A DNA stretch of 64,000 nt from Burkholderiales bacterium (GCA_043743335.1 JAYTWR010000193.1:32692-96691), one strand, 5' to 3'; counted from the first letter of the stretch, positions 8,367 to 60,268 are shown. Made by a program: numbers and translations. The notes: generated from the sequence alone by a model not told the origin.

Positions 8367-10286
8367 ATGCCTTCGTCACCGCTTTCCGCCGCCTACCACG
8401 AAATCAAACGCCTGCGCAGTTGCGGCGACATCCATGCCGCGCTGGCGATGCTGCAAGCGCAGCGGCCCGCGGCGGATGGCGATACCTTCGAAGCCGTCGT
8501 CACGTTATACATCGCGGGCGATCTCGACAGCGCCGTTAACGTATGCCGCACCCACCCATGGCAGGCACCATGGGCGATCAGCATGAGCCGCGCGTTGATC
8601 GACCTGCTGGCGAACCACAACGCGGCGCAGGCGCTCACGCACGCACGCGTCGCCCTGCGGGATCAAAACGCGGCACCGGATGCGCAGGCGTTTTATCTCT
8701 CATTGTTGCAAGCCAATGGGCTGATCGACGAAGCCTGCGGGTACATGCTGGACCATCTCGCACCGCCGCCGCTGGGCGAGACGTTTCTGCTGACCGTGAT
8801 GGCCGAAATCGCTGCCGCCGCGCAGCAATGGATGCCCGCCTATCAGCTTGGGTGCGCGGTAATGGCTACGGACACCTCGAACTACCGCGCGCTCATCGCG
8901 CTAAGCCTAGCGAACTACCAGTTCAATAATTTTCACGAAGCACTGGGCAACGCGCAGTGTGCCGATCTTATCCATCGCGGCGCGCTGCCGTCCACGCTGC
9001 AACTCATGCGTTGCCACAACCGGCTGGGGGATTACTACAGCGCCGTCGCCGCGTTTGATAGCCTTGACGCCGCGATCACGCCGCCGCCTGAGCTGCACGT
9101 GGCGCTGGGTATGGCATACGCCGGGCTGGAAAATTCGGCGCAGGCCGAGGCCGCCTATTGCGCCGCACTGACGGCAAATCCGCCGCCCATCGAAGCCCTG
9201 CGCGCGCTGCTGAAAATCTATCTCGACTCGGCGGATCACGATGCGCTCGCGGCGTTCGTCACGGCGCACGCGGCACTTATCGATGACGACACCGAGTGCA
9301 TTTTGCGCCAAGGCATGGAGCAGTTACGCCAAGGCAAGCGCGACGAGGCTGCGGCCTTGTTCAGAAAATGCAATGAAATCAATATCTTGCAAAAAGATGC
9401 TTACAGTCTCTTACCGTGGCCAGTGCCTGAACCGCGCGTCCGCCACGATTACGAGCAACTGGATTTACTGCGCCGACGCGGCAAACTCAACCCCGCCGGG
9501 CGGGATGCGCTGCGCGTGCTGCAACCGTTTTACGAGCAATCGGGCAACACGGCGCGCACCTTTGCGCCGCAGGGGGCGTTGGCTGACGCCTTCAAAAAAG
9601 CCTTGTGCGACATTCACTATTATCCGGATCCGGTGTTCAACGAAGTGGCGCTGGGCGCCAACGACTTTGCCACGCTCGAAGCGCAATACGCGGCTGAGAA
9701 TATCGTCGTCATCGACAATTTCCTGTCAGCCGAAGCGCTGGGCGAATTGCGCCGCTACAGCGAAGAAGCAACAGTGTGGAAGGTGTACAACGCGGGCGGC
9801 TACACCGCCGGGCTGATGGTGAAGGGTTTCGCACCGCGCGTGTTGCTGGCGATTGCCGATGAACTGCGACACAAAATGCCGCAGATCATCCAACACTATC
9901 CGCTGTTGCAGGCGTGGGGCTTCAAATACGATCAGCGCTTGCAGGGCATTACCCTGCACGCAGATTTTGCGCGGGTGAACGTAAACTTCTGGATTACGCC
10001 GGACGAGGCCTGCGAAGACCCCACCACCGGCGGCATGGTGGTCTACAACCACCCGGTGCCGAAAAGCTGGACGTTTGAAGATTACAACGTCAATCCACCG
10101 AAGCTAAAAGCCTTTCTGAAGGTGCACGACGCCACGCCACTGCGCGTGCCGTATCGCGCAAACCGCTGCGTGTTGTTCGACTCTAGCCTGATCCATGTGA
10201 CCGATGAACTGCACTTCAAGCCGGGATTTGAAAATCGTCGCGTGAATATCACGCTGCTGTTCGGTCGCGTGCGCGCCACGGAGTAA
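8367..10286 (+). CDS. helical-repeat (TPR-like) protein with C-terminal cupin/2OG-Fe(II)-oxygenase-like domain
   Basis: 639 aa. The C-terminus reads ITLHADFARVNVNFWITPDEA...GGMVVYNH...FDSSLIHVTDE...RRVNITLLFG, which gives a candidate H-x-D...H facial triad in a beta-rich segment. Confidence 0.45.
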   Translation: MPSSPLSAAYHEIKRLRSCGDIHAALAMLQAQRPAADGDTFEAVVTLYIAGDLDSAVNVCRTHPWQAPWAISMSRALIDLLANHNAAQALTHARVALRDQNAAPDAQAFYLSLLQANGLIDEACGYMLDHLAPPPLGETFLLTVMAEIAAAAQQWMPAYQLGCAVMATDTSNYRALIALSLANYQFNNFHEALGNAQCADLIHRGALPSTLQLMRCHNRLGDYYSAVAAFDSLDAAITPPPELHVALGMAYAGLENSAQAEAAYCAALTANPPPIEALRALLKIYLDSADHDALAAFVTAHAALIDDDTECILRQGMEQLRQGKRDEAAALFRKCNEINILQKDAYSLLPWPVPEPRVRHDYEQLDLLRRRGKLNPAGRDALRVLQPFYEQSGNTARTFAPQGALADAFKKALCDIHYYPDPVFNEVALGANDFATLEAQYAAENIVVIDNFLSAEALGELRRYSEEATVWKVYNAGGYTAGLMVKGFAPRVLLAIADELRHKMPQIIQHYPLLQAWGFKYDQRLQGITLHADFARVNVNFWITPDEACEDPTTGGMVVYNHPVPKSWTFEDYNVNPPKLKAFLKVHDATPLRVPYRANRCVLFDSSLIHVTDELHFKPGFENRRVNITLLFGRVRATE

Positions 10287-11364: not shown

Positions 11365-12600
11365 TTAAAAGATTTCAGCTAGGCACGCGTTCAAGGCGAA
11401 TTCGGTTTGTGGCAGATTAGCGGTGAAACCCAAAGACTCGCTTAGCGTACGGCCTTCGCGCAGCTTGACCGCCTCCGGCGCAACATGCCAGCAGGCGATG
11501 CCCAAAGCGCTCGCCAGTCGCGCGAACTCCGGCTGCTGTTTTGTGCTTAATATCAAACACTTACGTGCATTCCGCGCAAACAGCAGGTTTGCCATGTTAG
11601 CGCCGTACGGCCCGGCGACGACTTCTGCGGATGCCGCAAAGCGCATTTGTTCCGCGAAACTGTGGGCCTCGGGGTCGATGGCCACAAAGCCGTGGCGCTC
11701 GAACAGTTGAACGACCTCAGCCTCGTTCAGCAACGGGCGGTCTTTCGCATTGCGTCGCGCGAGATACAGCCTGCGCGGGCCATCCTGCGCCGTGGCGGGC
11801 AAGTGCGCGCGCAGGTAATTCAAACCCGTCACGCTGTGCGCGTGATGAAAATACGACGTGGTGCAGTAGTACAGCTCGCGACACTCAACACGCACGTGGG
11901 CGCGATGGCGGATCAAGCGGTTTTCGGCAATACCCATCGCGGCGAGCGAGGCCAATTGGTAGGGCGCAGCGTCACCGTGCAACAGGATCGGCAGATTACC
12001 CAAATCGCCCAAGTCACCCGTGTCACCCGTGTCACCATCGGCCGCATACGCCGCCAGCCGCGGCAGGCTGCCGAAAAACCACGCGGCGTAGTTGGTGGTG
12101 GCGGGCAAATAGAGCGCGGCGTCATTCACGCGCGCGGTTTCGCGATGGCGCACGGCGACGATAATTTGGCGCTCCGACGCGACGATGCCCGGAAACTCCG
12201 GCGGTAGGTGATGGCACAACTCGGCGTTGTTGTAGCCGATGTTGTCGTTGAGCAATTGCCCGGCGGCGGTCAATAAAATATTGGGCGCGATGGCGGTGCA
12301 ACGCGCCATCGCCAGCAGCCGCAAGGCCGGCGGTTGCCAAGGTGCCGCCCAAGGCTCGAACTGCGCCAGCCCCGCGAGTAACCGTGCGGTGGATGCCACT
12401 GCGGCATCTTCGAAAACCCGCAGTTGGCGCACGCCTTTGGCGCTCGCGGCAGCCTCAACCGCGAGCACAGGGTGCGCCAAAGCTATTGACGCTAACCCTT
12501 TGATTTGTAAATAATTTTTTGCGGCCTTGAGCGCCGCCGTCACGTTGCCTTCGGCAAGTTTGAGGGCGGCGAACTGCCGAGCCTGATCTGCCTCGGTCAT
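11365..12600 (-). CDS. GT61/DUF563-family glycosyltransferase
   Basis: 411 aa. RLYLARRNAKDRPLLNEAEVVQLFERHGFVAIDPEAHSFAEQMRFAASAEVVAGPYGANMANLLF matches the DUF563 C-terminal pattern. Confidence 0.65.
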   Translation of the reverse strand: MTEADQARQFAALKLAEGNVTAALKAAKNYLQIKGLASIALAHPVLAVEAAASAKGVRQLRVFEDAAVASTARLLAGLAQFEPWAAPWQPPALRLLAMARCTAIAPNILLTAAGQLLNDNIGYNNAELCHHLPPEFPGIVASERQIIVAVRHRETARVNDAALYLPATTNYAAWFFGSLPRLAAYAADGDTGDTGDLGDLGNLPILLHGDAAPYQLASLAAMGIAENRLIRHRAHVRVECRELYYCTTSYFHHAHSVTGLNYLRAHLPATAQDGPRRLYLARRNAKDRPLLNEAEVVQLFERHGFVAIDPEAHSFAEQMRFAASAEVVAGPYGANMANLLFARNARKCLILSTKQQPEFARLASALGIACWHVAPEAVKLREGRTLSESLGFTANLPQTEFALNACLAEIF

Positions 12601-12628
12601 TACCCGCTAGCCTGCGCCCAACGACAAC

Positions 12629-13318
12629 TTACTTGGCGTAGGTCACCGTCAAATCGCCGACGCCTTGCACATGCCCTTCAAGCGTGTCGCCCTTTTGCAC
12701 CGGGCCCACGCCCGACGGCGTGCCGGACATGATGATGTCGCCAGCGCGCAGGGTAATCAATTTCGACAGATACGCAATGGTCTCAGGCACGTTCCAGATC
12801 ATGTCGGCCAAATCACCCGTTTGCTTGACCACGCCATTGACTTTAAGCGTGATCGCGCCTTTGGCCGGGTGGCCCACCATGGCTACGGTTTTGAGCGCGG
12901 TGCATGGCGCAGATTCATCAAACGCCTTGCCCATTTCCCACGGGCGACCCATTTTCTTGGCTTCGCCCTGCACATCGCGGCGCGTCATGTCGAGGCCGAC
13001 GCCGTAGCCGAACACGTGATCCAGCGCTTTTTCCACAGGAATATCCTTGCCGCCCTTGCCGATAGCAACAATCATTTCGATTTCGTGATGCAAATCTTTG
13101 GTGACGGTCGGATAGGCAATTGTCGCGCCGCTCATCACAATCGCGTCTGCTGGCTTCATAAAGAAAAACGGCGGCTCGCGATCCGGGTCATGGCCCATTT
13201 CGCGCGCGTGCTCGGCATAGTTGCGGCCCACGCAGTAGATGCGGCCGACGGGAAACGCCGCATTGCTTTCGGCGACGGGTAATGTGGTGGGGCCGGGGAA
13301 ATCAATGGCGTAACTCAT
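12629..13318 (-). CDS. fumarylacetoacetate hydrolase (FAH) family protein
   Basis: 229 aa with IYCVGRNYAEHAREMG, HHEIEMIVAIGKGG and SGTPSGVGPV. Confidence 0.9.
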   Translation of the reverse strand: MSYAIDFPGPTTLPVAESNAAFPVGRIYCVGRNYAEHAREMGHDPDREPPFFFMKPADAIVMSGATIAYPTVTKDLHHEIEMIVAIGKGGKDIPVEKALDHVFGYGVGLDMTRRDVQGEAKKMGRPWEMGKAFDESAPCTALKTVAMVGHPAKGAITLKVNGVVKQTGDLADMIWNVPETIAYLSKLITLRAGDIIMSGTPSGVGPVQKGDTLEGHVQGVGDLTVTYAK

Positions 13319-13488
13319 GGTGTAATCCTTCGAGAGAGAATTTGCGCGCTTTCACGCGCGGCGATGCGCAACGGACGGGCGATTATCCGGGAAACCGTTC
13401 CTTTGGGTCAAACACCTGCGTGCCGTCACCGCACCGCATCGGGCAAGCCGGTTGAGAATAGCGCCGCACTCCACTATGCTCTCGGCCC

Positions 13489-14211
13489 ATGCCATCGACG
13501 CAAACCTTGAATCAAATCGCTTTTTTCTGGGTGGGGCAGGATGTCACCATCCCGTCGCTGCTGGTGCGCTCGATACGCCACGCGTTCGGCGCGCAATTCA
13601 GCATTCTGCAACTTTCAGACCGCGAGACGCCGCCGGTGGCGGGCGTCACCACGCACAAGAAAATCAAGCTCTCGCCGCACATTATGGTGGCACGGCTGGA
13701 GGCTTTTGCCGCTTCTGCGGTCACCACGCCCACGCTGTTTCTCGACGCCGACATGTTGGTGCTGCGCCCGTTTGACCTGCCGCCGCTGGCCGAAAACGAT
13801 GTCGGCGTCACCCCGCGCGGCGAACGCGACACCATTCGCTTTTCCAAACGCGAATGGGCGGAGTTTCCGGAATTCACCGAGAAGGATTCCGCGCAAATGA
13901 TGCCCTACATCTACTCTTTTGTGTACGTGCGCTCGCCGGTGATTTTTCTGCGACAACTGAATGCCTTGCGCAAAATGCCCAAGCGCTTTCACCGCTGGTA
14001 CGGCGATCAGATGACGCTGAAGAGCGAGCTGGACGCGCCGGGGCGGTTTACGCTACGCAATTTTGATGTCAATGTTTACAACCGTACCGTGCGCTCACGC
14101 GTGGAGTTTGAAGAAGTCCGCGACGCATCCAACGCAGTCTGCATCGCGCACTTCAAAGGGCCGGACAGCAAAGCCGCCATGCACGAATCGCTGGCGATGT
14201 TGGCCGGCTAG
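13489..14211 (+). CDS. putative nucleotide-sugar (GT-A, DXD) glycosyltransferase
   Basis: 240 aa. IAFFWVGQD...LFLDADMLVLRP gives a DXD motif in a GT-A-like context. Assignment is weak. Confidence 0.4.
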   Translation: MPSTQTLNQIAFFWVGQDVTIPSLLVRSIRHAFGAQFSILQLSDRETPPVAGVTTHKKIKLSPHIMVARLEAFAASAVTTPTLFLDADMLVLRPFDLPPLAENDVGVTPRGERDTIRFSKREWAEFPEFTEKDSAQMMPYIYSFVYVRSPVIFLRQLNALRKMPKRFHRWYGDQMTLKSELDAPGRFTLRNFDVNVYNRTVRSRVEFEEVRDASNAVCIAHFKGPDSKAAMHESLAMLAG

Positions 14212-14236
14212 TGCCGCCGCCGCACTAGGGCCGCCC

Positions 14237-14632
14237 ATGACCGAATCCACCAGCCTCTGGGCGTTGTTCGTCAGCAGCTTTCTCGCCGCCACACTGCTGC
14301 CCGGCGGCTCGGAAGTGGTGCTGTTTGGCGTGCTGAAGCTGCATCCCGGTCAGTTGTGGGCGGCGCTGGGCGTTGCGACCTTGGGCAACACGCTGGGTGG
14401 CATGTCGTCTTATGGGATCGGCAGGCTGATTCCGCAAAAGCAGGCCCTAAAAGGGCTGGCAACGGTGCAGCGCTACGGCGCGCCGGTATTGCTGCTGGCT
14501 TGGGTGCCGATCATCGGCGATCCACTGTGCCTGGCCGCTGGCTGGCTGCGGTTAAATCCTTGGTGGTCGGCGCTGTGTATCGCGGTGGGAAAATTCGTGC
14601 GCTATGGGGTGATTGCGGTGCTGGTGGTTTAG
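14237..14632 (+). CDS. YqaA/DedA-like inner-membrane protein
   Basis: The internal ATG at 14237 gives MTESTSLWALFVSSFLAATLLPGGSEVVLFG...ATLGNTLGGMSSYGIGR. The upstream extension in the ORF track overlaps the previous gene. Confidence 0.75.
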   Translation: MTESTSLWALFVSSFLAATLLPGGSEVVLFGVLKLHPGQLWAALGVATLGNTLGGMSSYGIGRLIPQKQALKGLATVQRYGAPVLLLAWVPIIGDPLCLAAGWLRLNPWWSALCIAVGKFVRYGVIAVLVV

Positions 14633-14855
14633 CCTGTCGACTGGGCCCCACGGGCGGCGCGGTACGTGATGTAATGCCAACTATCGATTGCTGTACGTAA
14701 AATAATACCGGTTTTCCGTGAAATAGCCGGGTAAAGTGTGACCTGATTCACAGGCGGTTGGCGGCGGGTACTCGTAATCTTGCGCCCGCTGGTTCGACGC
14801 CACGTGCCCTGTGGTGCAACATCGTCGCGCAACATCGGCACAACAGGAGATACTG

Positions 14856-16475
14856 ATGAGCTTGCCCTCTCTTTCCAACACCGGATCCACTTCAATCAAA
14901 TTGCAATTTAACGACGCCGCTGCATGCGCGCGCTGGGTGGCGGCGCTGCCGATCACCAATGTGCAACTGGTGCATCAAACGCTGTCGGAGCAAATCGCGG
15001 CGCTTGCCATCGTCAATGTGGCGCCGTTGGAGCGGTTGAAAATGATCGAGGCGCTGAAAGAGCCTTTGATGTTCGCGCAAGCGGAACTCGCCAAGCGTTA
15101 CATCGGCAAGCCCTTGCCGCTCGATCAGGCTGACGCCAAGGCATGGGACAGTGTGATGACGCTGTGGCGCGCGGCGGCTGCGGTGTACCGTAGTTGTCTG
15201 GATGCCTTTCGCGCGGGCGATTTGACGCTGGTGCCGCATGCCGCCCTGTTAACGCTGCGTTGCCTGCGCACGATGGCCTGCGGCTTGTTTGAGCACTATC
15301 AGGTGTATCGCGAACCCGATGCCGCCACGTGGCGTGGCTTTCACGAGCTGTTCGCGTTCGCTGAGGACCAAGGCCTGTCGCGCGTGCGCGTGCAGGATGT
15401 TTTCGGCAAGCGCGACGCGGATTCCAGTTGCGCCGAGGCCTATGTGCAGGGGCTCATGGCGAACCTTGCCAATCCGTATGCGCTGTCGGTGCGGCAAATC
15501 GCCTTTGTGCGGCGCTGGCTGGAGAAATGGTCGTCGCTGGTGGAGCTGTCGCGCCAGCCGTTGCCGCCGGGACAGATCCCGCCGCTGGCGGTAGATTTTG
15601 CTAGCGATAGTCCGCCTGGGCTGGCGGCGCAAATAACCCATAGTGATACGGTGCGCTATATCGATATGGAGCCGCTGTCCAAAACGCTGCGCCAAACCAT
15701 CAATATGCTCAAGCAGGGCCAAACGCCGGGACAGATCGGCTTGGGTGACGACGCGCGTCAGCCGGGTTGTGAAAACCTCATCATGCTGCTTTATTTGCAA
15801 TGGTGCCGCGCCGGTACCTTGCGCACTGAAGAGCGCAACACCATTGCAGCCCCTGTAGAAGTCTGTTTTGGCATCGCCGATAGCTTTAACGCGCTGGGCG
15901 GCGACAACCGCAGCAAGAAAGATATCGAATTCAACGCGCGCGACAAATGGGAAATGGACAACTTGGGTTTCTCCATGCGCCTGTCGAATACCGCGAAGCA
16001 GGCGTTGGTGAAAAAATCCGAAGCGTGGCAGGTGCTCAACCAAAGCAACTCGGGCTTTATGTGCATGCTGCGCGATCCCAGCGGTGTCATGCGCATGGTA
16101 CACAATCAGTTGCTGGGCATACGCCGCAGCAGTGAAGCGCCCAAGCTCGGCACGGTGCAATGGATCAGGGTGACGAGCAGCGGCGAAACCCAGTGCGGCG
16201 TACGCCTGTTTGCTGGCGCGGCGCAACCGGCCAAGGTGCGGCCCGCGAACTTCATCCTGCCGACCGGGCAGGAATATGAAGTGGCGTTGATCACGCCAGC
16301 CGTGCCGATGCCCGCCACACCGGCAACGATTGTGCTGCCTGCAGGTTGGTTTCAGAGCGGGCGCTTGCTTGAGCTGGAAGGCAACCCGCAAGATGCCCAG
16401 AAGCGGCTGGTCAAACTGCTGACGCTGATTGAGCGTGGCGCAGACTTCGACCGTTGTGCCGTGGAAACAGTGTAG
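14856..16475 (+). CDS. conserved hypothetical protein with a PilZ-like C-terminal motif
   Basis: An AGGAGA SD lies 5 nt before the ATG at 14856. The C-terminal VLNQSNSGFMCML resembles the (D/N)xSxxG half of the PilZ motif, but no clear RxxxR is present. Confidence 0.55.
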   Translation: MSLPSLSNTGSTSIKLQFNDAAACARWVAALPITNVQLVHQTLSEQIAALAIVNVAPLERLKMIEALKEPLMFAQAELAKRYIGKPLPLDQADAKAWDSVMTLWRAAAAVYRSCLDAFRAGDLTLVPHAALLTLRCLRTMACGLFEHYQVYREPDAATWRGFHELFAFAEDQGLSRVRVQDVFGKRDADSSCAEAYVQGLMANLANPYALSVRQIAFVRRWLEKWSSLVELSRQPLPPGQIPPLAVDFASDSPPGLAAQITHSDTVRYIDMEPLSKTLRQTINMLKQGQTPGQIGLGDDARQPGCENLIMLLYLQWCRAGTLRTEERNTIAAPVEVCFGIADSFNALGGDNRSKKDIEFNARDKWEMDNLGFSMRLSNTAKQALVKKSEAWQVLNQSNSGFMCMLRDPSGVMRMVHNQLLGIRRSSEAPKLGTVQWIRVTSSGETQCGVRLFAGAAQPAKVRPANFILPTGQEYEVALITPAVPMPATPATIVLPAGWFQSGRLLELEGNPQDAQKRLVKLLTLIERGADFDRCAVETV

Positions 16476-16564
16476 GCCAGCAAGACCGTGAGGACGGTTC
16501 CCGGTTATGATGTGCGCCCGCCGCAACTGCGGACTCACGTTATTGCACAGGAACCGTAGCAACC

Positions 16565-16936
16565 ATGGCTGGCATCGACCGTAATACGCCGTCGCCCACC
16601 GAGATCAAGCTGCATCAGGTCTCGCGCGTGCTGGAGCTCACTTTCAGCGACGGCAAAACCTTTGCATTGCCGTGCGAATTTCTGCGCGTGTATTCGCCCT
16701 CCGCCGAAGTGCGCGGCCACGGGCCGGGGCAAGAGACGCTGCAGGTGGGCAAGAAAAATGTTGAGATCAAGGCCGTGGAACCCGTAGGCAACTACGCGGT
16801 GCAGCTGGCGTTCTCCGACGGCCACAACACCGGCATTTATTCGTGGGACATTCTGTACGACTACGGCGTGCGTCAGCACGAGCTGTGGCAAGACTATTTG
16901 CGGCGCATGGAAGCCGCAGGCGCGTCGCGCGATTAA
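16565..16936 (+). CDS. DUF971 (gamma-butyrobetaine hydroxylase-like N-terminal domain) protein
   Basis: 123 aa with LELTFSDGKTFALPCEFLRVYSPSAEV...GNYAVQLAFSDGHNTGIYSWDILY. Confidence 0.8.
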   Translation: MAGIDRNTPSPTEIKLHQVSRVLELTFSDGKTFALPCEFLRVYSPSAEVRGHGPGQETLQVGKKNVEIKAVEPVGNYAVQLAFSDGHNTGIYSWDILYDYGVRQHELWQDYLRRMEAAGASRD

Positions 16937-21165: not shown

Positions 21166-21744
21166 ATGCGCTTACCCGTCATTGCCGCCCCCCTCAACCA
21201 CGTGCTCCGCGCCAATTCGTGGGCGCGCGAACGGCTCGCGCCCTTTGCCGGTCGCGTGGTGTGCATCGACAATCCGCCGTTTTCGGTCAACATGGCTGTG
21301 ACGGCGAACGGCGAAATTGCGGAAGCCGCCCCCGCTGCCACGCCCGACGTCACCGTGCATCTCACGCCGGGGCTGACCTTGCGCCTGCTGGCACGCGACC
21401 TGTCGGTATGGCAGGACATCAAAGTTGAGGGCGACGCCGCCTTTGCCGCTGCGATCAATTACGTGGCGCGCAACATCCGCTGGGATGTCGAAGAAGATTT
21501 AAGCCGCGTGGTCGGCGATATCGCCGCGCATCGCATGGTTGAAGCCGGGCGCAAGCTCGATCAGTGGACACGGCAGGGTGCGGACAATCTGGCGCGTTCG
21601 TTCGCTGAATACTGGACCGAAGAGCGACCCTTGATCGCCAGCCGCGCGGACATTGCGCTATTCAATCGCGAAGTGGATGCCTTGCGCGACGATCTCGCGC
21701 GGCTCGAAAAGCGCATTGAGTTACACGAACGACTGCAGGGTTGA
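21166..21744 (+). CDS. ubiJ: ubiquinone biosynthesis accessory factor UbiJ (SCP2 domain)
   Basis: 192 aa with LNHVLRANSWARERLAPFAG...KVEGDAAFAAAINYVARNIRWDVEEDLSRVVGDI. It sits directly upstream of ubiB. Confidence 0.75.
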   Translation: MRLPVIAAPLNHVLRANSWARERLAPFAGRVVCIDNPPFSVNMAVTANGEIAEAAPAATPDVTVHLTPGLTLRLLARDLSVWQDIKVEGDAAFAAAINYVARNIRWDVEEDLSRVVGDIAAHRMVEAGRKLDQWTRQGADNLARSFAEYWTEERPLIASRADIALFNREVDALRDDLARLEKRIELHERLQG

Positions 21745-24965: not shown

Positions 24966-26042
24966 TTATGGCCAGGCCGCACGAAACGCGTCGGCAAATT
25001 CTGCCAGCCGCGCCTGCGGCAGCAGGTTTATGCCTGCGGCACCCTTGCGCCCGCCACCGGTTTCAAAGCGCGCGCACAGCTCATCCGCGCCGTTGAGATT
25101 CGCCTGCGGCGCACGCACGCTGACGGTGTAGCCGCCGGCCTTGGCGACCAGCACCGCATGTGCGCGGCGCGCATGTTCCTGCGCGAGGCGGTTGCCGAAC
25201 AAGCCATTCACACGACGGCTCCAGGCCGCGTCCGGCAGCACGTAGAGCGCGGCGCTGTCATTGGAGAATTCAGGTTTTATGTCATCGGCGCGCTCGAAGT
25301 CTTCGCGCAACGCCTGTTTCAACACGTCGAACACCGGCTCGTCGATCATGAATTTGCGCGGGTCGGTGTACGGTGAAATCGTTTCATACAAATCGGCCGG
25401 CGGGTAATGCAAATCATCGGGCGTTTCGCCGTAGGCGTTGTAGTTGAGGCAATCGCCCAGCTCATGCAGGCGCGCGAGTTCGGTGTGATCCAGATCGAGC
25501 GATTGCGCCGCCTTGATTGCCGACGCAACAAGATTGTCGCCAAACGCCGCCACCACGGCCCATATACGGTAGCGCCCCGACAAATGACGATCCACAATCA
25601 GACTGGTGCAAATATCCGCGGCGGTGTCGATGTGTGCGATGAGATTGGCATGCACGGGGATGAAGCCCGCCGCGTGATGATCAAAATACTCGCATTTGAC
25701 GCCGCGCCCCAGCAATTTGCCCAGCGCCGACGCATTGGATTTCAGTGAAATGTCGAGCACGGTGATTTCGTCGCCGGCTTGCGCCTGCAACAATTCGACA
25801 CGCTCCAGCAGTTTGATATCGCGTTTGACGCCGGTGATGCGTTCACTGTGGCGCGGTTGTGCGAGCCGCAACTGGTGCAGAGCGCACAGCCCATCGGCGT
25901 CGCCGTTAAAAATGTCGTAGTATTTGTGCAATGGCTGCTGAGTCGAAATGAATGGATAAGATGCGCAAAGGGACGCACGATGGCGCGCAAAATAACAGCG
26001 CGCCGGCTGACTCGCGTCATGTGTATCTGCTGGCGCTGACAC
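24966..26042 (-). CDS. DHH-family phosphoesterase-like protein (start uncertain, possibly TTG at 25931)
   Basis: Contains FNGDADGLCA (DxD motif) and EYFDHHAAG (DHH motif). The longest ORF overlaps the divergent VanZ-like gene by 91 bp. Confidence 0.65.
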   Translation of the reverse strand: MSAPADTHDASQPARCYFARHRASLCASYPFISTQQPLHKYYDIFNGDADGLCALHQLRLAQPRHSERITGVKRDIKLLERVELLQAQAGDEITVLDISLKSNASALGKLLGRGVKCEYFDHHAAGFIPVHANLIAHIDTAADICTSLIVDRHLSGRYRIWAVVAAFGDNLVASAIKAAQSLDLDHTELARLHELGDCLNYNAYGETPDDLHYPPADLYETISPYTDPRKFMIDEPVFDVLKQALREDFERADDIKPEFSNDSAALYVLPDAAWSRRVNGLFGNRLAQEHARRAHAVLVAKAGGYTVSVRAPQANLNGADELCARFETGGGRKGAAGINLLPQARLAEFADAFRAAWP

Positions 26043-27103
26043 TGGCGATAGCTTACCTGCTCGTTATCGTCTACGCCAGCTTGCAGCCGCTGCGCGGCTG
26101 GCGCTTGCCAGCAGAAGATGTGTACGGCTTTCTGAGTGCGCCGCTGCCGCGTTACATCACCCTTAGCGACGTGCTGATCAACGTGTCGGCGTATATCCCG
26201 CTCGGCTTTATGCTGACGCTGGGCCTGCGCATTGCATTGCCGCCGGTGGCGGCTGTCGTCATGGGCGTCGTGATGGCGGCCGCACTCAGCATCGGCATGG
26301 AAGCCCTACAAATGTTTTTGCCCGCGCGTATCGCATCGAACGTGGACGTAATGGCCAACAGCGTGGGCGCGTTGATCGGCGCATTGGCGGCGCCGCTGTT
26401 TTTGCCCTCGCAACGTATCGGCGCGCGGCTCGGGGTGCTGCGCGACCGCGTGTTCTTGCCCGGCGCGCTGATCGACAGCGGCATCGTGGTGGCGACATTG
26501 TGGATCGTCACGCACCTTAATCCGTTGACGCAGGTGTTCGGCACCGGCCATTTGCGCGCGACCTTCGATTTGCCCGATCCCCTGTTCCACACGCCCAGCC
26601 TGCTGCTGTCGGCCGAAGCCAGCGTGGTGTTTTTTAATCTGTTGGGGGTGGGGCTGCTGCTGTCGACTTTGCTGCATGCCGAATCCCGCCGCGGGCTGGT
26701 GATCGGCGTTGTCATCGCGGCAGCCATCGCCTGCAAAATGCTGATTAACCTGTTTCTCGCCAAACCGCTGGGCGCGTGGGCTTGGATGACGCCAGGCGCG
26801 CTGCTGGGCCTGCTGCTCGGCACCACACTGCTGGCGGGCCTGTTGACCTTTGGCCGCAGGGCGCGGTTGGCACTCGCGCTGCTGTGCCTGTTGATGGCGC
26901 TGGCGGCGATCAATCTTGCGCCGGACAACCCGTATTTCAGCCTGCCGCCGCAACTGACCAGCGGCAAGGCCAGTCACTTTTTGAGTTTTTCCAGCATCTT
27001 GGGGGCGCTGTCGGAGCTGTGGCCGCTAATCGCGCTGGGGTACCTGTGCGTGGCGCTCTGGCACAGCCGCACGCGCCGCCTCTATAATGAGCGCACACCC
27101 TGA
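25952..27103 (+). CDS. VanZ-like family membrane protein
   Basis: 383 aa. It has VIVYASLQPLRGWRLP, multiple TM helices, and INVSAYIPLGF. Confidence 0.65.
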   Translation: MDKMRKGTHDGAQNNSAPADSRHVYLLALTLAIAYLLVIVYASLQPLRGWRLPAEDVYGFLSAPLPRYITLSDVLINVSAYIPLGFMLTLGLRIALPPVAAVVMGVVMAAALSIGMEALQMFLPARIASNVDVMANSVGALIGALAAPLFLPSQRIGARLGVLRDRVFLPGALIDSGIVVATLWIVTHLNPLTQVFGTGHLRATFDLPDPLFHTPSLLLSAEASVVFFNLLGVGLLLSTLLHAESRRGLVIGVVIAAAIACKMLINLFLAKPLGAWAWMTPGALLGLLLGTTLLAGLLTFGRRARLALALLCLLMALAAINLAPDNPYFSLPPQLTSGKASHFLSFSSILGALSELWPLIALGYLCVALWHSRTRRLYNERTP

Positions 27104-27118
27104 GACAAGGACACTCCC

Positions 27119-27427
27119 GTGAGCTACTTCGAACGACACGTTTTCTTTTGCTGTAACCAGCGCACCAACGGCGCGAACTGCTGCAACGACCACGGCGCCA
27201 GCAAAATCCGCGACTACGCCAAAGACAAAGTCAAAGAACTGAAGTTGAACGGCAAAGGCAAGGTGCGCGTCAACATGGCAGGCTGCCTTGATCGCTGCGA
27301 TGAAGGCCCGGTGATGGTGGTCTACCCCGAAGAAGTCTGGTACACCTATGTCGATCAGGAAGATGTCGACGAAATCGTACAAGAGCATTTGCGCCACGGG
27401 CGCGTGGTAGAACGGCTGAAAATCTGA
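27119..27427 (+). CDS. thioredoxin-like [2Fe-2S] ferredoxin
   Basis: 102 aa with HVFFCCNQR...CC...MAGCLDRCDEGPVMVVYPE. GTG start preceded by an AAGGA SD. Confidence 0.85.
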   Translation: MSYFERHVFFCCNQRTNGANCCNDHGASKIRDYAKDKVKELKLNGKGKVRVNMAGCLDRCDEGPVMVVYPEEVWYTYVDQEDVDEIVQEHLRHGRVVERLKI

Positions 27428-27447: not shown

Positions 27448-27894
27448 ATGACTTCCCCCGATACCCGCAGTTACGCTATACGCGCACAATCCACCGCCAC
27501 CCACGGGCGCGTGATGTGCAGCGTGCGCAATCACCATTTCATTGTAGATGGCCCCGTGCAAAACGGCGCGCCCGGCGAAGCGGTCACACCAGCCGAGTTG
27601 TTCCTCGCCGGCATCGCGGCCTGTGGCGTAGAGCTGGTGCAATCGTTTGCCAAAGCAGAAGCCATGCCGCTGCGCGCCATCGACGTAAACATCGGCGGCA
27701 TGATGGATCGCGCGAAGCCGGTGCGACAGGACGTGTCCGTCTTCAACGCGGTGCATATCCAATTCGCCTTGTCCGGTGTCACGCCTGCGCAAGGCACAGC
27801 GTTGATCGACCGCTTCAAGGGAAGGTGACCGCTCTACGGCAGCGTCGCGGTCGCGACGCCGGATGTGCGGGTTGAAGTCACCGTGACACGGTGA
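27448..27894 (+). CDS. OsmC-family peroxidase-like protein with in-frame TGA at 27826-27828 (candidate selenocysteine, or pseudogene)
   Basis: The first conserved Cys is present (FLAGIAACGVELV). The ORF stops at FKGR-TGA, but the same frame continues PLYGSVAVATPDVRVEVTVTR-TGA, so the TGA occupies the conserved C-P-[LV] cysteine position. Confidence 0.6.
27842..27859 (+). other. SECIS-like hairpin downstream of the in-frame TGA
   Basis: GCGTCGC-GGTC-GCGACGC forms a 7-bp GC stem. The loop contains GGU, begins 21 nt after the TGA, and the stem begins 13 nt after it. Confidence 0.35.
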
Positions 27895-27910: not shown

Positions 27911-28525
27911 ATGCCTTCGCCTGTCAAAACGACGCTGATCCCCGGCCCCGCCGGCAATATCGAATGCGATATCAGCGAGCCGGCGAATCGCGACGTGCCA
28001 TTACGAGGTATCGCGCTGATCGCGCACCCCAATCCATTGCAGGGCGGTGCCAAGGACAACAAAGTTGTTACCACGCTGGCGCGCACGTTTAACAGCCTTG
28101 GCTACGTGGCTTTGCGGCCCAATTTTCGTGGCGTGGGCGCGACGGATGGCTTGCACGACAAGGGCGTAGGCGAAACCGATGACTTGATCGCGGTGGCGGA
28201 CTACGCCAAAAATACTTATATAAATCAATTAGTGACATTGGTCGGCTTTTCGTTTGGCAGCTTTGTGCAAACACGCGTGGCGAAGCGTATGGCGTGTGAG
28301 CGCCTGGTGCTGGTGGGCCCAGCGGTGAATCGCTTTGCCGCCGAACCCGTGCCGGAGAACACCTTGATCGTTCACGGCGAGCAAGATGACGTGGTACCAC
28401 TCACCGCCGTGATGGATTGGGCGCGCCCGCAAAATCTGCCGGTGGTGGTGTTACCCGGCGGCGATCATTTTTTTCACGGACGCCTGCATCTGTTGTCGGC
28501 TATCGTCACGCGCTGGTGCGCATGA
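27911..28525 (+). CDS. alpha/beta hydrolase
   Basis: 204 aa with IAHPNPLQGG, the nucleophile elbow GFSFGS, HGEQDDVVP and GGDHFFHG. Confidence 0.8.
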   Translation: MPSPVKTTLIPGPAGNIECDISEPANRDVPLRGIALIAHPNPLQGGAKDNKVVTTLARTFNSLGYVALRPNFRGVGATDGLHDKGVGETDDLIAVADYAKNTYINQLVTLVGFSFGSFVQTRVAKRMACERLVLVGPAVNRFAAEPVPENTLIVHGEQDDVVPLTAVMDWARPQNLPVVVLPGGDHFFHGRLHLLSAIVTRWCA

Positions 28526-57097: not shown

Positions 57098-58359
57098 TGT
57101 CAGATAGCGACGCAAAACCCTCATGGCGTGAGATGTTTGTCGCCATGTTAAGCCGCCGCATGCTGGTAGCGCTGCTGATGGGGTTTGCCTGCGGGTTGCC
57201 ACTGCTGTTGACTGGCTCCGTGTTGCAGGCTTGGTTGAAGGATGGCGGGGTTAGCCTGACCGACATCGGCTTTTTCGCACTGGTGGGTTTGCCGTATACG
57301 CTCAAGTTTTTGTGGGCGCCCTTGTTCGATCGTTATGTGCCGCCATTGTTGGGGCGCCGACGCGGTTGGTTGGTGATGGCGCAACTGGTGCTGGCGGCGG
57401 CGCTCGCTGCGTTAAGTCTCGCGCAGCCCACGCCCGGCCATTTGTGGTGGATCTCTGTAGCAGCGCTGCTGGTGTCCTTCTTTTCGGCCTCGCAAGACAT
57501 TGTCGTGGACGCCTATCGCCGCGAGAGCCTGTCGGATAATGAACTGGGCTTAGGGTCGGCGCTTTACGTCAACGGCTATCGCGTGGGCATGCTACTCGCC
57601 AGTGGTGGCGGGCTGATTATTGCCGATCACACCTCTTTTGCCTTGATGTATCAGTTGATGGCGGCTTGCATGGTGTTGTGCGTGGGCGTGACCCTATGGG
57701 CGGTCGAACCGCCGCTACCCGAAGGCGCACCCACGTCGTTGCACGAAGCGGTGGTGTTGCCGTTTCGCGATTACTTTGCGCGCGAGGGCGCGTGGTTGGC
57801 GCTGGCGTTTATTCTGTTTTACAAACTCGGCGACATCATGGCGAGCAGCATTACCACGCCGTTTTATCTCGAATTGGGATACTCCAAAACCGAGATCGGC
57901 GCGGTGGTGAAACTGTTTGGCTTTTGGGCCACCATCGTCGGCGGCACGCTGGGCGGCATGATCATTATGCGCATCGGCATGACGCGCGCGCTGTGGGCGT
58001 TTGGCGTGTTGCAAATGGTATCGACACTGGGCTTTCTGGCGCTGGCCTATATCGGTCATAACAATGCGGCATTGGCGGCGGTGATTGCCATCGAAAACCT
58101 TGCGGGTGGCTTGGGCACTGCCGCGTTTGTGGGCTTTATGGGCGCGTTAACCGACAAGCGCTTTACCGCCACACAATACGCCTTGCTGTCGAGCTTGATG
58201 GGCGTGCCGAGGGTGTTTATCGCCGCACCTGCGGGCTGGTTGGCAACTACGCTCGGCTGGCCGGTATTTTTTGCCCTCTGCACACTACTGGCCATACCCG
58301 GCTTGCTGCTGATCCGCAGCGTGGCACGCCTGCACCAAACTCAGCCCGCGCCGAAATGA
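57097..58359 (+). CDS. ampG: muropeptide permease AmpG (MFS)
   Basis: 420 aa with GFACGLPLLLTGSVLQAWL, YTLKFLWAPLFDRY and 12+ TM helices. Confidence 0.85.
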   Translation: MSDSDAKPSWREMFVAMLSRRMLVALLMGFACGLPLLLTGSVLQAWLKDGGVSLTDIGFFALVGLPYTLKFLWAPLFDRYVPPLLGRRRGWLVMAQLVLAAALAALSLAQPTPGHLWWISVAALLVSFFSASQDIVVDAYRRESLSDNELGLGSALYVNGYRVGMLLASGGGLIIADHTSFALMYQLMAACMVLCVGVTLWAVEPPLPEGAPTSLHEAVVLPFRDYFAREGAWLALAFILFYKLGDIMASSITTPFYLELGYSKTEIGAVVKLFGFWATIVGGTLGGMIIMRIGMTRALWAFGVLQMVSTLGFLALAYIGHNNAALAAVIAIENLAGGLGTAAFVGFMGALTDKRFTATQYALLSSLMGVPRVFIAAPAGWLATTLGWPVFFALCTLLAIPGLLLIRSVARLHQTQPAPK

Positions 58360-58937
58360 TAAATCGCCAAAGCCCCTAGTAAATTAGGTAATAAATTCAA
58401 CGACTTACCGTCTGTCAGCACTTTGCGCTCAAGGATACGGATGTGGCGTTCGGCGCAAAACTGCTCGAAGTCGTCGAGTGTGCACAGGTGGATGTTCGGT
58501 GTGTCAAACCATTGGTGCGGCAGATTCTCTGAAATCGGCATGCGCCCAGACAACACGTGCAGGCGGTTGCGCCAGTAGCCGAAATTCGGGAACGTCAGAA
58601 TGCCCTCGCGGCCCACGCGCAGCATTTCGCGAATAATGCGCTCGCCGTTGCGCATGGCTTGCAGCGTCTGCGACAGAATCACGTAATCGAATGACTGATC
58701 GTCAAACTCGCGCAAGCCTCGTTCTAGGTTGCGCTGAATCACGTTGACGCCGTTTTTCACGCACGCCAACACATTGGCGTCGTCGATCTCTACACCGTAA
58801 CCGGTAATGTTGCGCTCGCGCGTAAGATAGTTGAACAGCGCTCCGTCGCCGCAGCCCAAATCCAGCACGCGCGCGCCGGGCTTGACCCATTGTGCGATGG
58901 CGGCAAAATCAGCGCGGTCAATGCTGATACCGTTCAT
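58341..58937 (-). CDS. metW: methionine biosynthesis protein MetW
   Basis: 198 aa with [11 protein letters not shown] and ILSQTLQAM. It overlaps metX by 4 bp. Confidence 0.9.
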
Positions 58938-60097
58938 GGCGCGCCCCCGGTGGCAATGCGCTCAAAGTACGCCGCCACCAGCTTGTGATAGCGCTCATCA
59001 TCTAGCAAAAACGCATCATGGCCGTGCGGCGCATCGATTTCAGCATACGTCACATCACGCTTGTTCTTGAGCAAGGCATGCACGATCTCGCGCGAGCGCT
59101 CGGGCGAAAAGCGCCAGTCCGTGGTAAACGACACCACTAAAAACCCGGCAGTTGCCGGTGCCAACGCTTTGGCTAAATCGCCGCCATACTCAAACGCCGG
59201 ATCAAAATAATCTAACGCCTTGGTGATGCGTAAATAAGTGTTGGCGTCGAAGTAACCGGAGAATTTGTCCGCTTGGTAACGCAGATAAGACTCGATCTCG
59301 AATTCCGTATCGAAGCTGTAATTCACGCGCCCGTGCTTCAAGGTGCGGCCGAACTTGTTCGCCATTTCGTCGTCGGACAAATACGTAATGTGCCCCACCA
59401 TGCGCGCCACGCGCAGGCCCCGGCGCGGCGTGGCGTTGTGCGCGTAATAATCACCGCCGTGAAAATCCGGATCAGTGAGTATGGCTTGCCGAGCTACCTC
59501 ATTAAACGCAATGTTCTGCGCCGACAGATTGGGCGCGCAGGCAATCACCAGCGCGTGTCGTGTGCGCTGCGGATAGGCGATGCTCCATTGCAGGCACTGC
59601 ATGGCGCCCAAACTGCCGCCCATCACGGCGGCGAATTGCGCGATGCCCAAATAATCCGCCAGCCGCGCCTGTGCGTTCACCCAATCGTCCACCGTTACCA
59701 GCGGAAAATCTGCGCCCCACGGTTGGCCCGTTTGCGCATTGATCGACAGCGGCCCGGTAGAGCCGTGACAGCCGCCCAGGTTATTCACGCCCACCACAAA
59801 AAACCGGTTCGTATCCAGCGGCTTGCCGGGGCCGATCATGTTGTCCCACCAACCGACATTGTTCGGCTCGTGGGCGTAGACACCCGCAACATGGTGCGAG
59901 GCATTAAGCGCGTGGCACACCAGCACCGCATTCGAGCGCGCGGCGTTCAAAGTGCCATAGGTCTCAAACGCGAGTTCGTAATCGGCGATCGCACGCCCGC
60001 ACTTGAGCGGCAATGGCTCGCGGAACGCAGCCCGTTGCGGCGTGACCACGCCCACGCTGGCGGTAGTAGGGCTGGCTATATTTTTTACAGCATCCAT
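58934..60097 (-). CDS. metX: homoserine O-acyltransferase MetX
   Basis: Contains [13 protein letters not shown], the nucleophile elbow GGSLGAMQ, and [11 protein letters not shown]. The ATG at 60097 is preferred over the GTG at 60127. Confidence 0.9.
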
Positions 60098-60098
60098 G

Positions 60099-60131
60099 AA
60101 AAAACCCGGCGAGCTTGCGCAATTCACCGGG
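60099..60131 (-). terminator. terminator-like hairpin abutting the metX start codon (possible attenuator or expression platform)
   Basis: On the minus strand: CCCGGTG-AATTGCGCAAGCT-CGCCGGG followed by TTTTTT, then C and the ATG. Confidence 0.4.
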
Positions 60132-60164
60132 TTTGAGTCACGTGGCCTTAACCAAGCACCACCA

Positions 60165-60218
60165 TCTCTTTAGCCGGATTTATTGCGCGCCCGCAATCTG
60201 ACTTCAAATCGGCGCGTC
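60165..60218 (-). promoter_or_regulatory. pseudoknot-capable hairpin in the metX leader (possible SAM-responsive element, unverified)
   Basis: On the minus strand a CGCGCC/GGCGCG stem has a 19-nt loop starting GAUUU. The 3' tail AAUAAAUCCGGCUAAAGAG can pair (AAAUC) with that loop. Confidence 0.3.
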
Positions 60219-60268
60219 AAAACAAGGACTTACATTACCTCGCCACACGTAAATTGTCAATTTCTATG

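Follow-up and report, generated by a model that had tools for sequence, protein, structure and literature searches.

An In-Frame UGA at the C-Terminal Cysteine Position of an OsmC/Ohr-Fold Protein Points to a Selenoprotein Family in Burkholderiales and Other Bacteria

Introduction

Does the in-frame TGA near the end of an OsmC-like gene from a Burkholderiales bacterium terminate a short protein, or is it read as selenocysteine (Sec)? The question is raised by a stretch of 64,000 nucleotides (GCA_043743335.1, JAYTWR010000193.1:32692-96691), which as a whole is called the window here. All coordinates are positions in this 64-kb window, numbered from its first letter, and the gene lies on the plus strand. 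In a preliminary description of the window, the gene had been proposed as a candidate selenoprotein gene, since its frame continues beyond the TGA and a hairpin resembling a bacterial selenocysteine insertion sequence (SECIS) follows the codon. The comparative analysis reported here supports this proposal by the conservation of the TGA, the existence of cysteine (Cys) homologues, covariation within the hairpin, and the presence of sel genes beside the gene in three relatives. Based on these comparisons, the gene very probably encodes a selenoprotein, whereby the UGA would be decoded as Sec127 by means of a SECIS element in the coding region, resulting in a 148-aa product of the OsmC/Ohr fold (Table 1).

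Results

The Reading Frame Continues Beyond the In-Frame TGA

The open reading frame (ORF) that starts with the ATG at 27448 is closed by the in-frame TGA after 126 aa and ends with ...LIDRFKGR. Past this codon the frame reads PLYGSVAVATPDVRVEVTVTR until a second TGA, which yields a conceptual product of 148 aa, and the first of the two cysteine sites, Cys59 (TGT), lies within the sequence GIAACGVELV. Translation thus reproduced the ORF end, the 148-aa continuation and the Cys-containing motif as they had been described, and the same holds for the two stem arms, the GGUC loop and the 13-nt offset of the stem from the TGA. The 3' neighbouring ORF begins at 27911, which agrees with the described closeness of the next gene to the extended stop.

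Table 1. Features of the OsmC/Ohr-like gene and their positions in the window.
Feature	Position	Strand	Basis or remark
Full coding sequence (CDS) of the predicted OsmC/Ohr-like selenoprotein	27448..27894	+	148 codons including Sec127, plus true stop; translation, Pfam, tblastn
Cys59 codon TGT, N-terminal conserved Cys of the OsmC/Ohr fold	27622..27624	+	invariant in both family alignments
In-frame UGA, predicted to be read as Sec127	27826..27828	+	TGA in 82/82 sequences; next base always C
Post-Sec extension, 21 codons PLYGSVAVATPDVRVEVTVTR	27829..27891	+	last strand(s) of the OsmC fold; also houses the SECIS
Predicted bacterial-type SECIS hairpin in the CDS	27838..27860	+	RNAalifold consensus, covariation, published bacterial SECIS criteria
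True terminator TGA	27892..27894	+	extension of 21 codons in 59/80 loci; similarity to L085 collapses directly after

The TGA and the Coding Extension Are Conserved Among Relatives

A protein search with the window product led to the identification of 2369 relatives, of which the 120 closest clusters, at 64-100% identity, were inspected. In addition, a scan covering one genome per GTDB species yielded 249 relatives, the best 80 of which were kept. The tblastn matches in these 80 loci extend from residue 1 to about residue 145 and show 58-80% protein identity; with 80% as the best value, the genome of the window itself is evidently not among the species representatives scanned. According to the record titles, the loci belong to Betaproteobacteria/Burkholderiales, Acidobacteriota, Candidatus Binatia, Chloroflexia, Thermoleophilia/Gaiellaceae, and Opitutales (Verrucomicrobiota), so that the carriers span at least six phylum-level labels, with soil, groundwater, and freshwater as habitats. 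Together with the window and an identical Logan contig from run SRR23617269 (L001), the 80 loci make up a set of 82 sequences. The internal codon is TGA in every one of them, and neither TAA nor TAG occurs (0/82). The true terminators of the 80 loci are mixed (TGA 43, TAG 21, and TAA 16), so that the internal TGA is specifically maintained.

The peptide behind the TGA is conserved as PL[YF]G[ST]VAVATP[DE]V and is followed by a real stop, mostly 21 codons on, and no frameshifts are present in the extensions of the 80 loci. Selection was estimated from pooled Nei-Gojobori-type proportions of nonsynonymous and synonymous differences (pN/pS) without correction for multiple hits. The pN/pS value is 0.014 for the four codons directly after the TGA (PLYG) and 0.255 for codons +1 to +17, compared to 0.52 for the gene portion upstream of the TGA and 0.96 in the same frame beyond the true stop, which was taken as a control. 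At PLYG all four Pro, four Leu, two Tyr, and four Gly codons occur, and thus the low value at these positions is due to selection on the protein. Judged by these ratios, the extension after the TGA is under purifying selection. The closest relative, L085, which stems from a separate ENA assembly and has 90% amino acid identity, is identical to the window in the TGA plus 50 nt and has the same stop position, whereby the similarity breaks down immediately past the true stop.

Among the 120 closest clusters, 118 are 125-127 aa long, i.e., they end at the UGA site. The remaining two are a 125-aa protein covering 81% of the query and a 147-aa Cys form. Distant members at 35-43% identity likewise end at ...[FY]K.R (e.g., P0149, P0158, P0172, P0201, and P0213), and public records name the members “hypothetical protein” or “uncharacterized OsmC-like protein” with a length of 126 aa.

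Two short contigs among the loci carry divergent titles. L056 (DASPXQ010000224.1, 2.5 kb) is titled “Thermoplasmata archaeon” and its gene copy is nearly identical to that of the Acidobacteriota locus L054, and L061 (CAZQJF010000545.1, 3.0 kb) is titled “Streptomycetaceae” with a gene copy nearly identical to Burkholderiales-type copies. Both labels are probably binning errors and not true archaeal or actinomycete occurrences.

Cysteine Homologues and Fold Assign the UGA to the C-Terminal Cysteine Site

The Cys-containing homologues align R-C-P-L-[YF]-G at the TGA column, which bears out the claim that the TGA occupies exactly the position of the conserved C-terminal cysteine. P0046 (147 aa, ...RFKRR-C-PLFGSVAVATPDVRVDVVVA) is the sole clear full-length Cys form among the 120 closest clusters; further Cys forms of 143-158 aa with R/N-C-P-L-[YF]-G are P0129, P0131, P0193, P0216, P0239, P0247, and P0260. 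Across the Sec and Cys forms the columns R21, D34, L53, C59, G110, L119, C/U127, and P128 are invariant, and E50 is conserved in at least 90%.

The 148-aa product matches the Pfam family OsmC (PF02566) with E = 3.5e-9 and 37.4 bits (cutoff 27.5), and the match covers residues 42-138, spanning the TGA. Comparison of the family profile with PDB sequences retrieved OsmC 9wo1 (5.9e-11), the uncharacterised OsmC-like protein 2pn2, and the Ohr proteins 9jx6 (1.9e-9), 6mjn, 3eer, and 1n2f. In the alignments, Cys59 coincides with the cysteine of the Ohr sequence AAC, and residue 127 with that of the Ohr motif V-C-P-Y; in Ohr/OsmC, these are the peroxidatic and the resolving cysteine, respectively. An AlphaFold model of a Cys homologue, with a predicted local distance difference test (pLDDT) value of 75.7, shows an OsmC-like order of secondary structure. 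Its best Foldseek matches are the OsmC-like structure 3cje and Ohr 6d9n/6mjn, with template modelling (TM) scores of only 0.5-0.6 for the monomer model. The OsmC/Ohr fold is a domain-swapped dimer, which would explain the modest TM scores of a monomer. In the C-terminal 20 residues of the model, which are covered by the query row alone, pLDDT is 54-57. A model of this moderate quality supports the fold, and the distance between Cys59 and Sec127 is not derivable from it.

A Covarying Hairpin Follows the TGA

In the window, the stem arm GCGUCGC (27842-27848) pairs with GCGACGC (27853-27859) and encloses the loop GGUC (27849-27852), and the TGA is separated from the stem by 13 nt and from the loop by 20 nt. 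The RNA alignment comprised 80 sequences (78 distinct), each including the TGA with 6 nt of upstream and 51 nt of downstream sequence. In the RNAalifold consensus, an upper stem of 6 bp carries a loop of 4 nt, and a 5' bulge of 3 nt sets it off from two lower G-C pairs. Its counterparts in the window are the upper stem 27843-27848 with 27853-27858 and, below the 5' bulge, the lower pairs 27838-27839 with 27859-27860, whereby the upper stem gains an extra pair 27842/27859 in the window. Folded as a single sequence, the hairpin reaches -13.1 kcal/mol with a z-score of -1.45, and 17 of 200 shuffles of this 59% GC sequence fold equally well; the 61-nt context gives z = -0.14. Since single-sequence folding is unremarkable, the case for the hairpin rests on the comparison across loci.

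In this comparison, the eight-pair hairpin shows 94.1% standard pairs versus 83.9 ± 0.8% in column shuffles and a covariation score of 0.280 versus 0.101, and for both measures none of the shuffles reached the observed value (0/500 each). Sliding the 3' partners by 1-3 columns lowers the covariation score to 0.07 or less. Changes of both partners are seen at three pairs, namely pair 24-39 (CG 42, GC 34, AU 4), pair 27-36 (CG 78, UA 2), and pair 30-33, for which the distinct sequences are GC in 40 and AU in 38 cases with no mixed types. These compensatory changes mostly concern synonymous third positions: the Ala codon GCG/GCA moves with the Val codon GTC/GTT, and the Thr codon ACG/ACC/ACT tracks the Ser/Thr codon AGC/ACG/ACA. 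Within the stem, codon choice is almost fixed (GTC 78/80, GCG 78/80), whereas all four synonyms are found at a Val codon directly beyond it. The loop occurs as GGUC or AGUU, with an invariant GU at 27850-27851, and the folded variants range from -10.4 to -13.1 kcal/mol.

The Cys forms differ at both the RNA and the peptide level. In the single Cys-form locus that was examined (L084, encoding P0046), the site is TGT, and the hairpin is weaker (-8.5 versus -13.1 kcal/mol in the window) with a C.C mismatch at pair 24-39. Moreover, the peptide SVAVATP/TVAVATP is invariant in the Sec forms but varies in the Cys forms (TLSAAVP, TLAFATG, SIAASAG, and others). A peptide that is fixed only in the Sec forms is the signature expected of a second constraint at the RNA level.

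The bacterial SECIS (bSECIS) model of PMC13188914 specifies an apical loop of 3-9 nt with a G in the first two loop positions, an upper stem of 4-16 bp, a UGA-to-loop distance of 16-37 nt, and a minimum free energy of at most -7.5 kcal/mol. The hairpin described here, with a 4-nt loop (GGUC/AGUU), a stem of 6-7 bp, a distance of 20 nt, and -13.1 kcal/mol, lies within all of these ranges, and together with the covariation at three pairs this substantiates the resemblance to bacterial SECIS elements that had been claimed. Like the fdhF-type SECIS of E. coli and the bSECIS consensus (PMC13188914, Fig. 2A; PMC8659212), the element is a stem-loop directly behind the UGA inside the ORF, with a small loop containing an essential G-U and a bulge on the 5' side. 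It differs in that the GU is located at nt 25-26 here, counted from the U of the UGA, and at G23/U24 in fdhF (PMC8659212), and in that a conserved lower helix extending to the UGA is lacking in the present family. The covariation between loop positions 1 and 4 is perfect (G-C or A-U), and both states are found in Betaproteobacteria and Acidobacteriota. With these positions paired, the GU alone stays unpaired; such a loop is unusual on steric grounds in a free hairpin and could mirror the conformation bound to SelB. Pairing of the outer loop nucleotides N1 and N2 is permitted by the consensus pattern in PMC13188914.

Sec Machinery Genes Are Linked to the Gene in Three Relatives

In three relatives (L027, L029, and L038), sel genes or the tRNA for Sec lie within about 8 kb of the OsmC-like gene. 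In L029, where the OsmC-like gene is located at 10001, selA (11934-13454; Pfam SelA, 519 bits), selB (13292-15472; SelB beta-barrel and winged-helix domains), and tRNA-Sec (16824-16920) follow at a distance of 2-7 kb. L027 harbors selB and tRNA-Sec, and L038 harbors selA and selB near the gene. ARAGORN calls a canonical tRNA-SeC in L027 and L029, and selD was not seen in any of the fetched flanks of the relatives. The presence of sel genes beside the gene in these relatives suggests that carriers of the gene can decode Sec. The linkage in the three Burkholderiales-type genomes may represent one shared ancestral arrangement.

In L029, a gene for a thioredoxin-reductase-like pyridine nucleotide-disulfide oxidoreductase (Pyr_redox_2; 15690-16604, plus strand, 304 aa) is situated between selB and tRNA-Sec, about 5 kb downstream of the OsmC-like gene. 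It was seen in this single locus, and its product could be a candidate reductase or a partner in selenium metabolism.

The Family Differs From the Known OsmC-Like Selenoprotein and From Ohr

An OsmC-like selenoprotein has been known since the analysis of the Sargasso Sea marine metagenome (Zhang, Fomenko and Gladyshev 2005; PMC1088965), and it is listed both in the Global Ocean Sampling (GOS) study and in the 2026 selenoprotein catalogue, which gives the motif UxxT. The supplementary sequences of this marine family have Sec at the N-terminal Cys (AGIGF-U-LLTQ) and Cys at the C-terminal position (KQGCFAE) (PMC1088965). The family described here shares with the marine one (NF041052) the OsmC fold PF02566, one predicted UGA-encoded Sec with a downstream SECIS in the coding region, and a Cys/Sec pair made up from both conserved cysteines of the fold. 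In contrast to the marine family, Cys59 (AACGVE) occupies the N-terminal site here and the predicted Sec lies in R-U-P-L-Y at the C-terminal site; furthermore, the marine family is known from marine metagenomes, whereas the present one occurs in Betaproteobacteria and Acidobacteriota of soil, groundwater, and freshwater. With the NCBIfam model NF041052 (“OsmC-related (seleno)protein”, cutoff 95), the Sargasso reference scores 157.4 bits and the window protein 33.2 bits, and BLASTP of the window protein versus the marine protein results in a local alignment of about 20% identity (E = 0.004). Membership in the NF041052 UxxT family was rejected, since the score is below the cutoff and the Sec is placed at the other cysteine. 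Score and Sec position thus assign the window gene to a different clade of the OsmC superfamily.

Membership in Ohr proper was likewise rejected, as the window protein attains 23.5 bits with the Ohr model TIGR03561 at a cutoff of 88.85. With the Ohr/OsmC thiol peroxidases the family has in common the fold, the two conserved Cys sites (AAC... and ...CP[LVY]), and an invariant Arg plus a near-invariant Glu in the neighbourhood of Ohr's GR and NPE motifs. It differs from Ohr in that Sec would replace the resolving Cys, in the motifs RNHHF and DGPVQNGxPGE, which are absent from Ohr, and in that an ohrR-like or other conserved partner gene was not found near the gene.

The review containing the 2026 catalogue treats families that differ in Sec position as separate subfamilies; among its 119 prokaryotic (sub)families, the OsmC-like entry is UxxT only. 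In the freely accessible literature on Ohr or OsmC with selenocysteine, only the family with N-terminal Sec was found. The window family is absent from the 2026 catalogue, and the most fitting description is that of the OsmC superfamily having a second Sec position, unrelated to the first and associated with a canonical bacterial SECIS.

Discussion

Weighing the Explanations for the In-Frame UGA

That the family consists of genuine selenoproteins is held here with high confidence. Our confidence that the full-length Sec protein is made by this particular organism is somewhat lower, because the sel genes of this organism were not seen. Several observations speak against decoding as Sec or against an Ohr-like function of the product. 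In the 64-kb window, neither selA, selB, nor selD was found by tblastn with E. coli SelA, SelB, and SelD, and tRNA-Sec was not found either, whereby ARAGORN detects no tRNA gene at all in the window. For this organism, decoding as Sec is therefore deduced solely from the intact UGA and the putative SECIS, and for the family members in general the predicted incorporation rests on sequence comparison. Taken by itself, the hairpin is not significant compared to shuffles, and Rfam at gathering thresholds matched no SECIS-type family at the locus. In the HMMER alignment with the Ohr chain 3eer_A, R21 and E50 lie 1-3 residues off the GR and NPE motifs, which hold the catalytic Arg and Glu of Ohr; given this register offset, an Arg-Glu-Cys triad equivalent to that of Ohr, for which Cys59 does align, is only putative. 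A Sec at the resolving-Cys position of Ohr/OsmC is atypical, and the caveat raised in the preliminary description, that Sec would sit at the resolving and not at the N-terminal position, was right, as the predicted Sec lies at the C-terminal Cys. Finally, when all ORFs within 4 kb of the gene were clustered, the most frequent partner, of the TctC type, occurred in only 12 of 81 loci. TctC-type genes are, in our judgement, simply common in Betaproteobacteria. As a conserved neighbour is lacking, neither a substrate nor a reductant is suggested by the genomic surroundings.

That gene callers and public records annotate a 126-aa product, and that no Sec machinery was found in the window, would fit a pseudogene or a recent nonsense mutation (TGC/TGT to TGA), with only the 126-aa fragment being made. 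We regard this as very improbable, since the TGA is present in 80/80 loci at 58-80% identity from several phyla, with extensions that are intact, under selection, and without frameshifts, and since truncation would remove the invariant C-P motif together with the final beta-strand(s) of the fold. Relatives with TGC/TGT and a decayed tail, for which a check had been advised, did not turn up; all of the 80 loci keep the TGA, an intact extension, and the hairpin with its compensatory changes. The probability that the TGA is an assembly or sequencing error is negligible: nothing specific speaks for it, and the codon is found in the identical Logan contig of run SRR23617269, in 80 other assemblies, and in the closest ENA relative.

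Other rivals accept the extension and concern the way in which it is read. SECIS- and SelB-dependent Cys insertion by a Cys-charged tRNA-Sec-like tRNA has been reported for some bacteria, and UGA followed by C is a weak terminator context. The UGA could accordingly be recoded to something other than Sec, by SelB-dependent Cys insertion, near-cognate Trp readthrough, or reassignment of UGA, and in view of the Cys homologues, Cys would be chemically acceptable at residue 127, where the inserted residue is predicted from sequence. However, UGA is the commonest true stop of the gene (43/80 terminators) and many window genes end in TGA, so that reassignment of the genetic code is ruled out; simple readthrough would have no need of a conserved hairpin of the SelB type; and the gene for SelA, the enzyme making Sec-tRNA, lies beside the gene in L029 and L038, as does tRNA-SeC in L027 and L029. 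Non-Sec recoding is thus considered improbable. It could also be that the hairpin is a regulatory or terminator-like structure or a by-product of the SVAVATP codons and has nothing to do with the decoding of the UGA. It is GC-rich in a GC-rich genome, its folding energy alone is not significant, and the encoded peptide is itself conserved. Against this, the synonymous third positions co-vary in a way that keeps the pairing (GCG/GTC in 40 versus GCA/GTT in 38 distinct sequences, mixed combinations in 0), ACG/ACC/ACT tracks AGC/ACG/ACA, the peptide is variable in the Cys forms, no T-run follows 3' of the hairpin, and spacing and loop fit the SECIS model, all of which makes such an origin of the hairpin quite improbable.

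A Possible Thiol/Selenol Redox Cycle

With the UGA decoded as Sec, SelB-GTP together with Sec-tRNA(Sec) would bind the hairpin when the ribosome arrives at the UGA, and Sec127 would be inserted. The product would keep C59 and carry U127 at the C-P-L-Y position, and it might function as a thiol/selenol-dependent reductase of hydroperoxides or as another redox reductase. Its cycle would alternate between the reduced state (Cys59-SH/Sec127-Se(-)) and a Cys59-Sec127 selenenylsulfide. In the likeliest scheme, Cys59 would attack the hydroperoxide, Sec127 would quickly resolve the sulfenic acid, and a dithiol reductant would reduce the S-Se bond, whereby the selenolate would speed the resolution of oxidised Cys59 and ease re-reduction by the physiological reductant. 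Alternatively, the roles may be swapped, with Sec127 as the peroxidatic residue. There is about an even chance, in our estimation, that the family as a whole represents an Ohr/OsmC-type peroxidase family with Sec as the resolving residue that is dominant in its clade, spans at least six phylum-level labels, is mis-annotated, and is missing from the 2026 catalogue.

Further subfamilies of bacterial selenoproteins come to light regularly, but the present one is widespread, mis-annotated everywhere, and has its predicted Sec at the resolving-Cys position. Database entries truncated at the predicted Sec codon number in the hundreds to thousands (2369 relatives, of which the closest ~120 are nearly all 126 aa long), and they would be corrected by a family model that includes a rule for Sec. 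Such a model would in addition enlarge the selenoproteome known from Betaproteobacteria and Acidobacteriota of soil and groundwater. A Sec at the resolving site with the peroxidatic Cys kept would constitute a natural experiment on the role of selenium in thiol-peroxidase cycles, where it could bring faster resolution, protection from over-oxidation, or easier reduction of the selenenylsulfide, and for which the natural Cys forms provide controls. The compact and very uniform SECIS with its loop-closing covariation would furthermore offer clean comparative data on how SelB recognises its target outside Enterobacteria.

Genomic Neighbourhood and Other Observations in the Window

The genes flanking the OsmC-like gene in the window encode a 2Fe-2S thioredoxin-like ferredoxin, a VanZ-like protein, and an alpha/beta hydrolase, and none of these gene types was found near the gene in any other locus compared. 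The VanZ-like ORF (25952-27103, plus strand) ends with TGA, and its frame enters the ferredoxin gene (27119-27427, plus strand) 5 codons later; these are most likely adjacent genes that share a frame by chance. No other convincing case of a TGA-interrupted gene was found in the 64-kb window. A gene for a 358-aa protein (24966-26042, minus strand) overlaps the VanZ-like ORF by about 90 nt at the 5' ends, and such a divergent overlap indicates that at least one start codon is probably mis-assigned in the ORF list. For this 358-aa protein and for a 192-aa protein (21166-21744), no Pfam family was matched at E <= 1e-5.

The only Rfam match in the window is a SAM_alpha riboswitch (RF00521) at 60149-60225 on the minus strand, with 37.3 bits compared to a gathering threshold of 36. 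It lies directly upstream of a gene of the alpha/beta-hydrolase fold (58934-60127, minus strand), which is probably metX (homoserine O-acetyltransferase) and is followed by metW (58341-58937, minus strand; Pfam MetW, 239 bits). The relatives of this genome are labelled Betaproteobacteria, and the SAM_alpha element is an ordinary leader of methionine biosynthesis.

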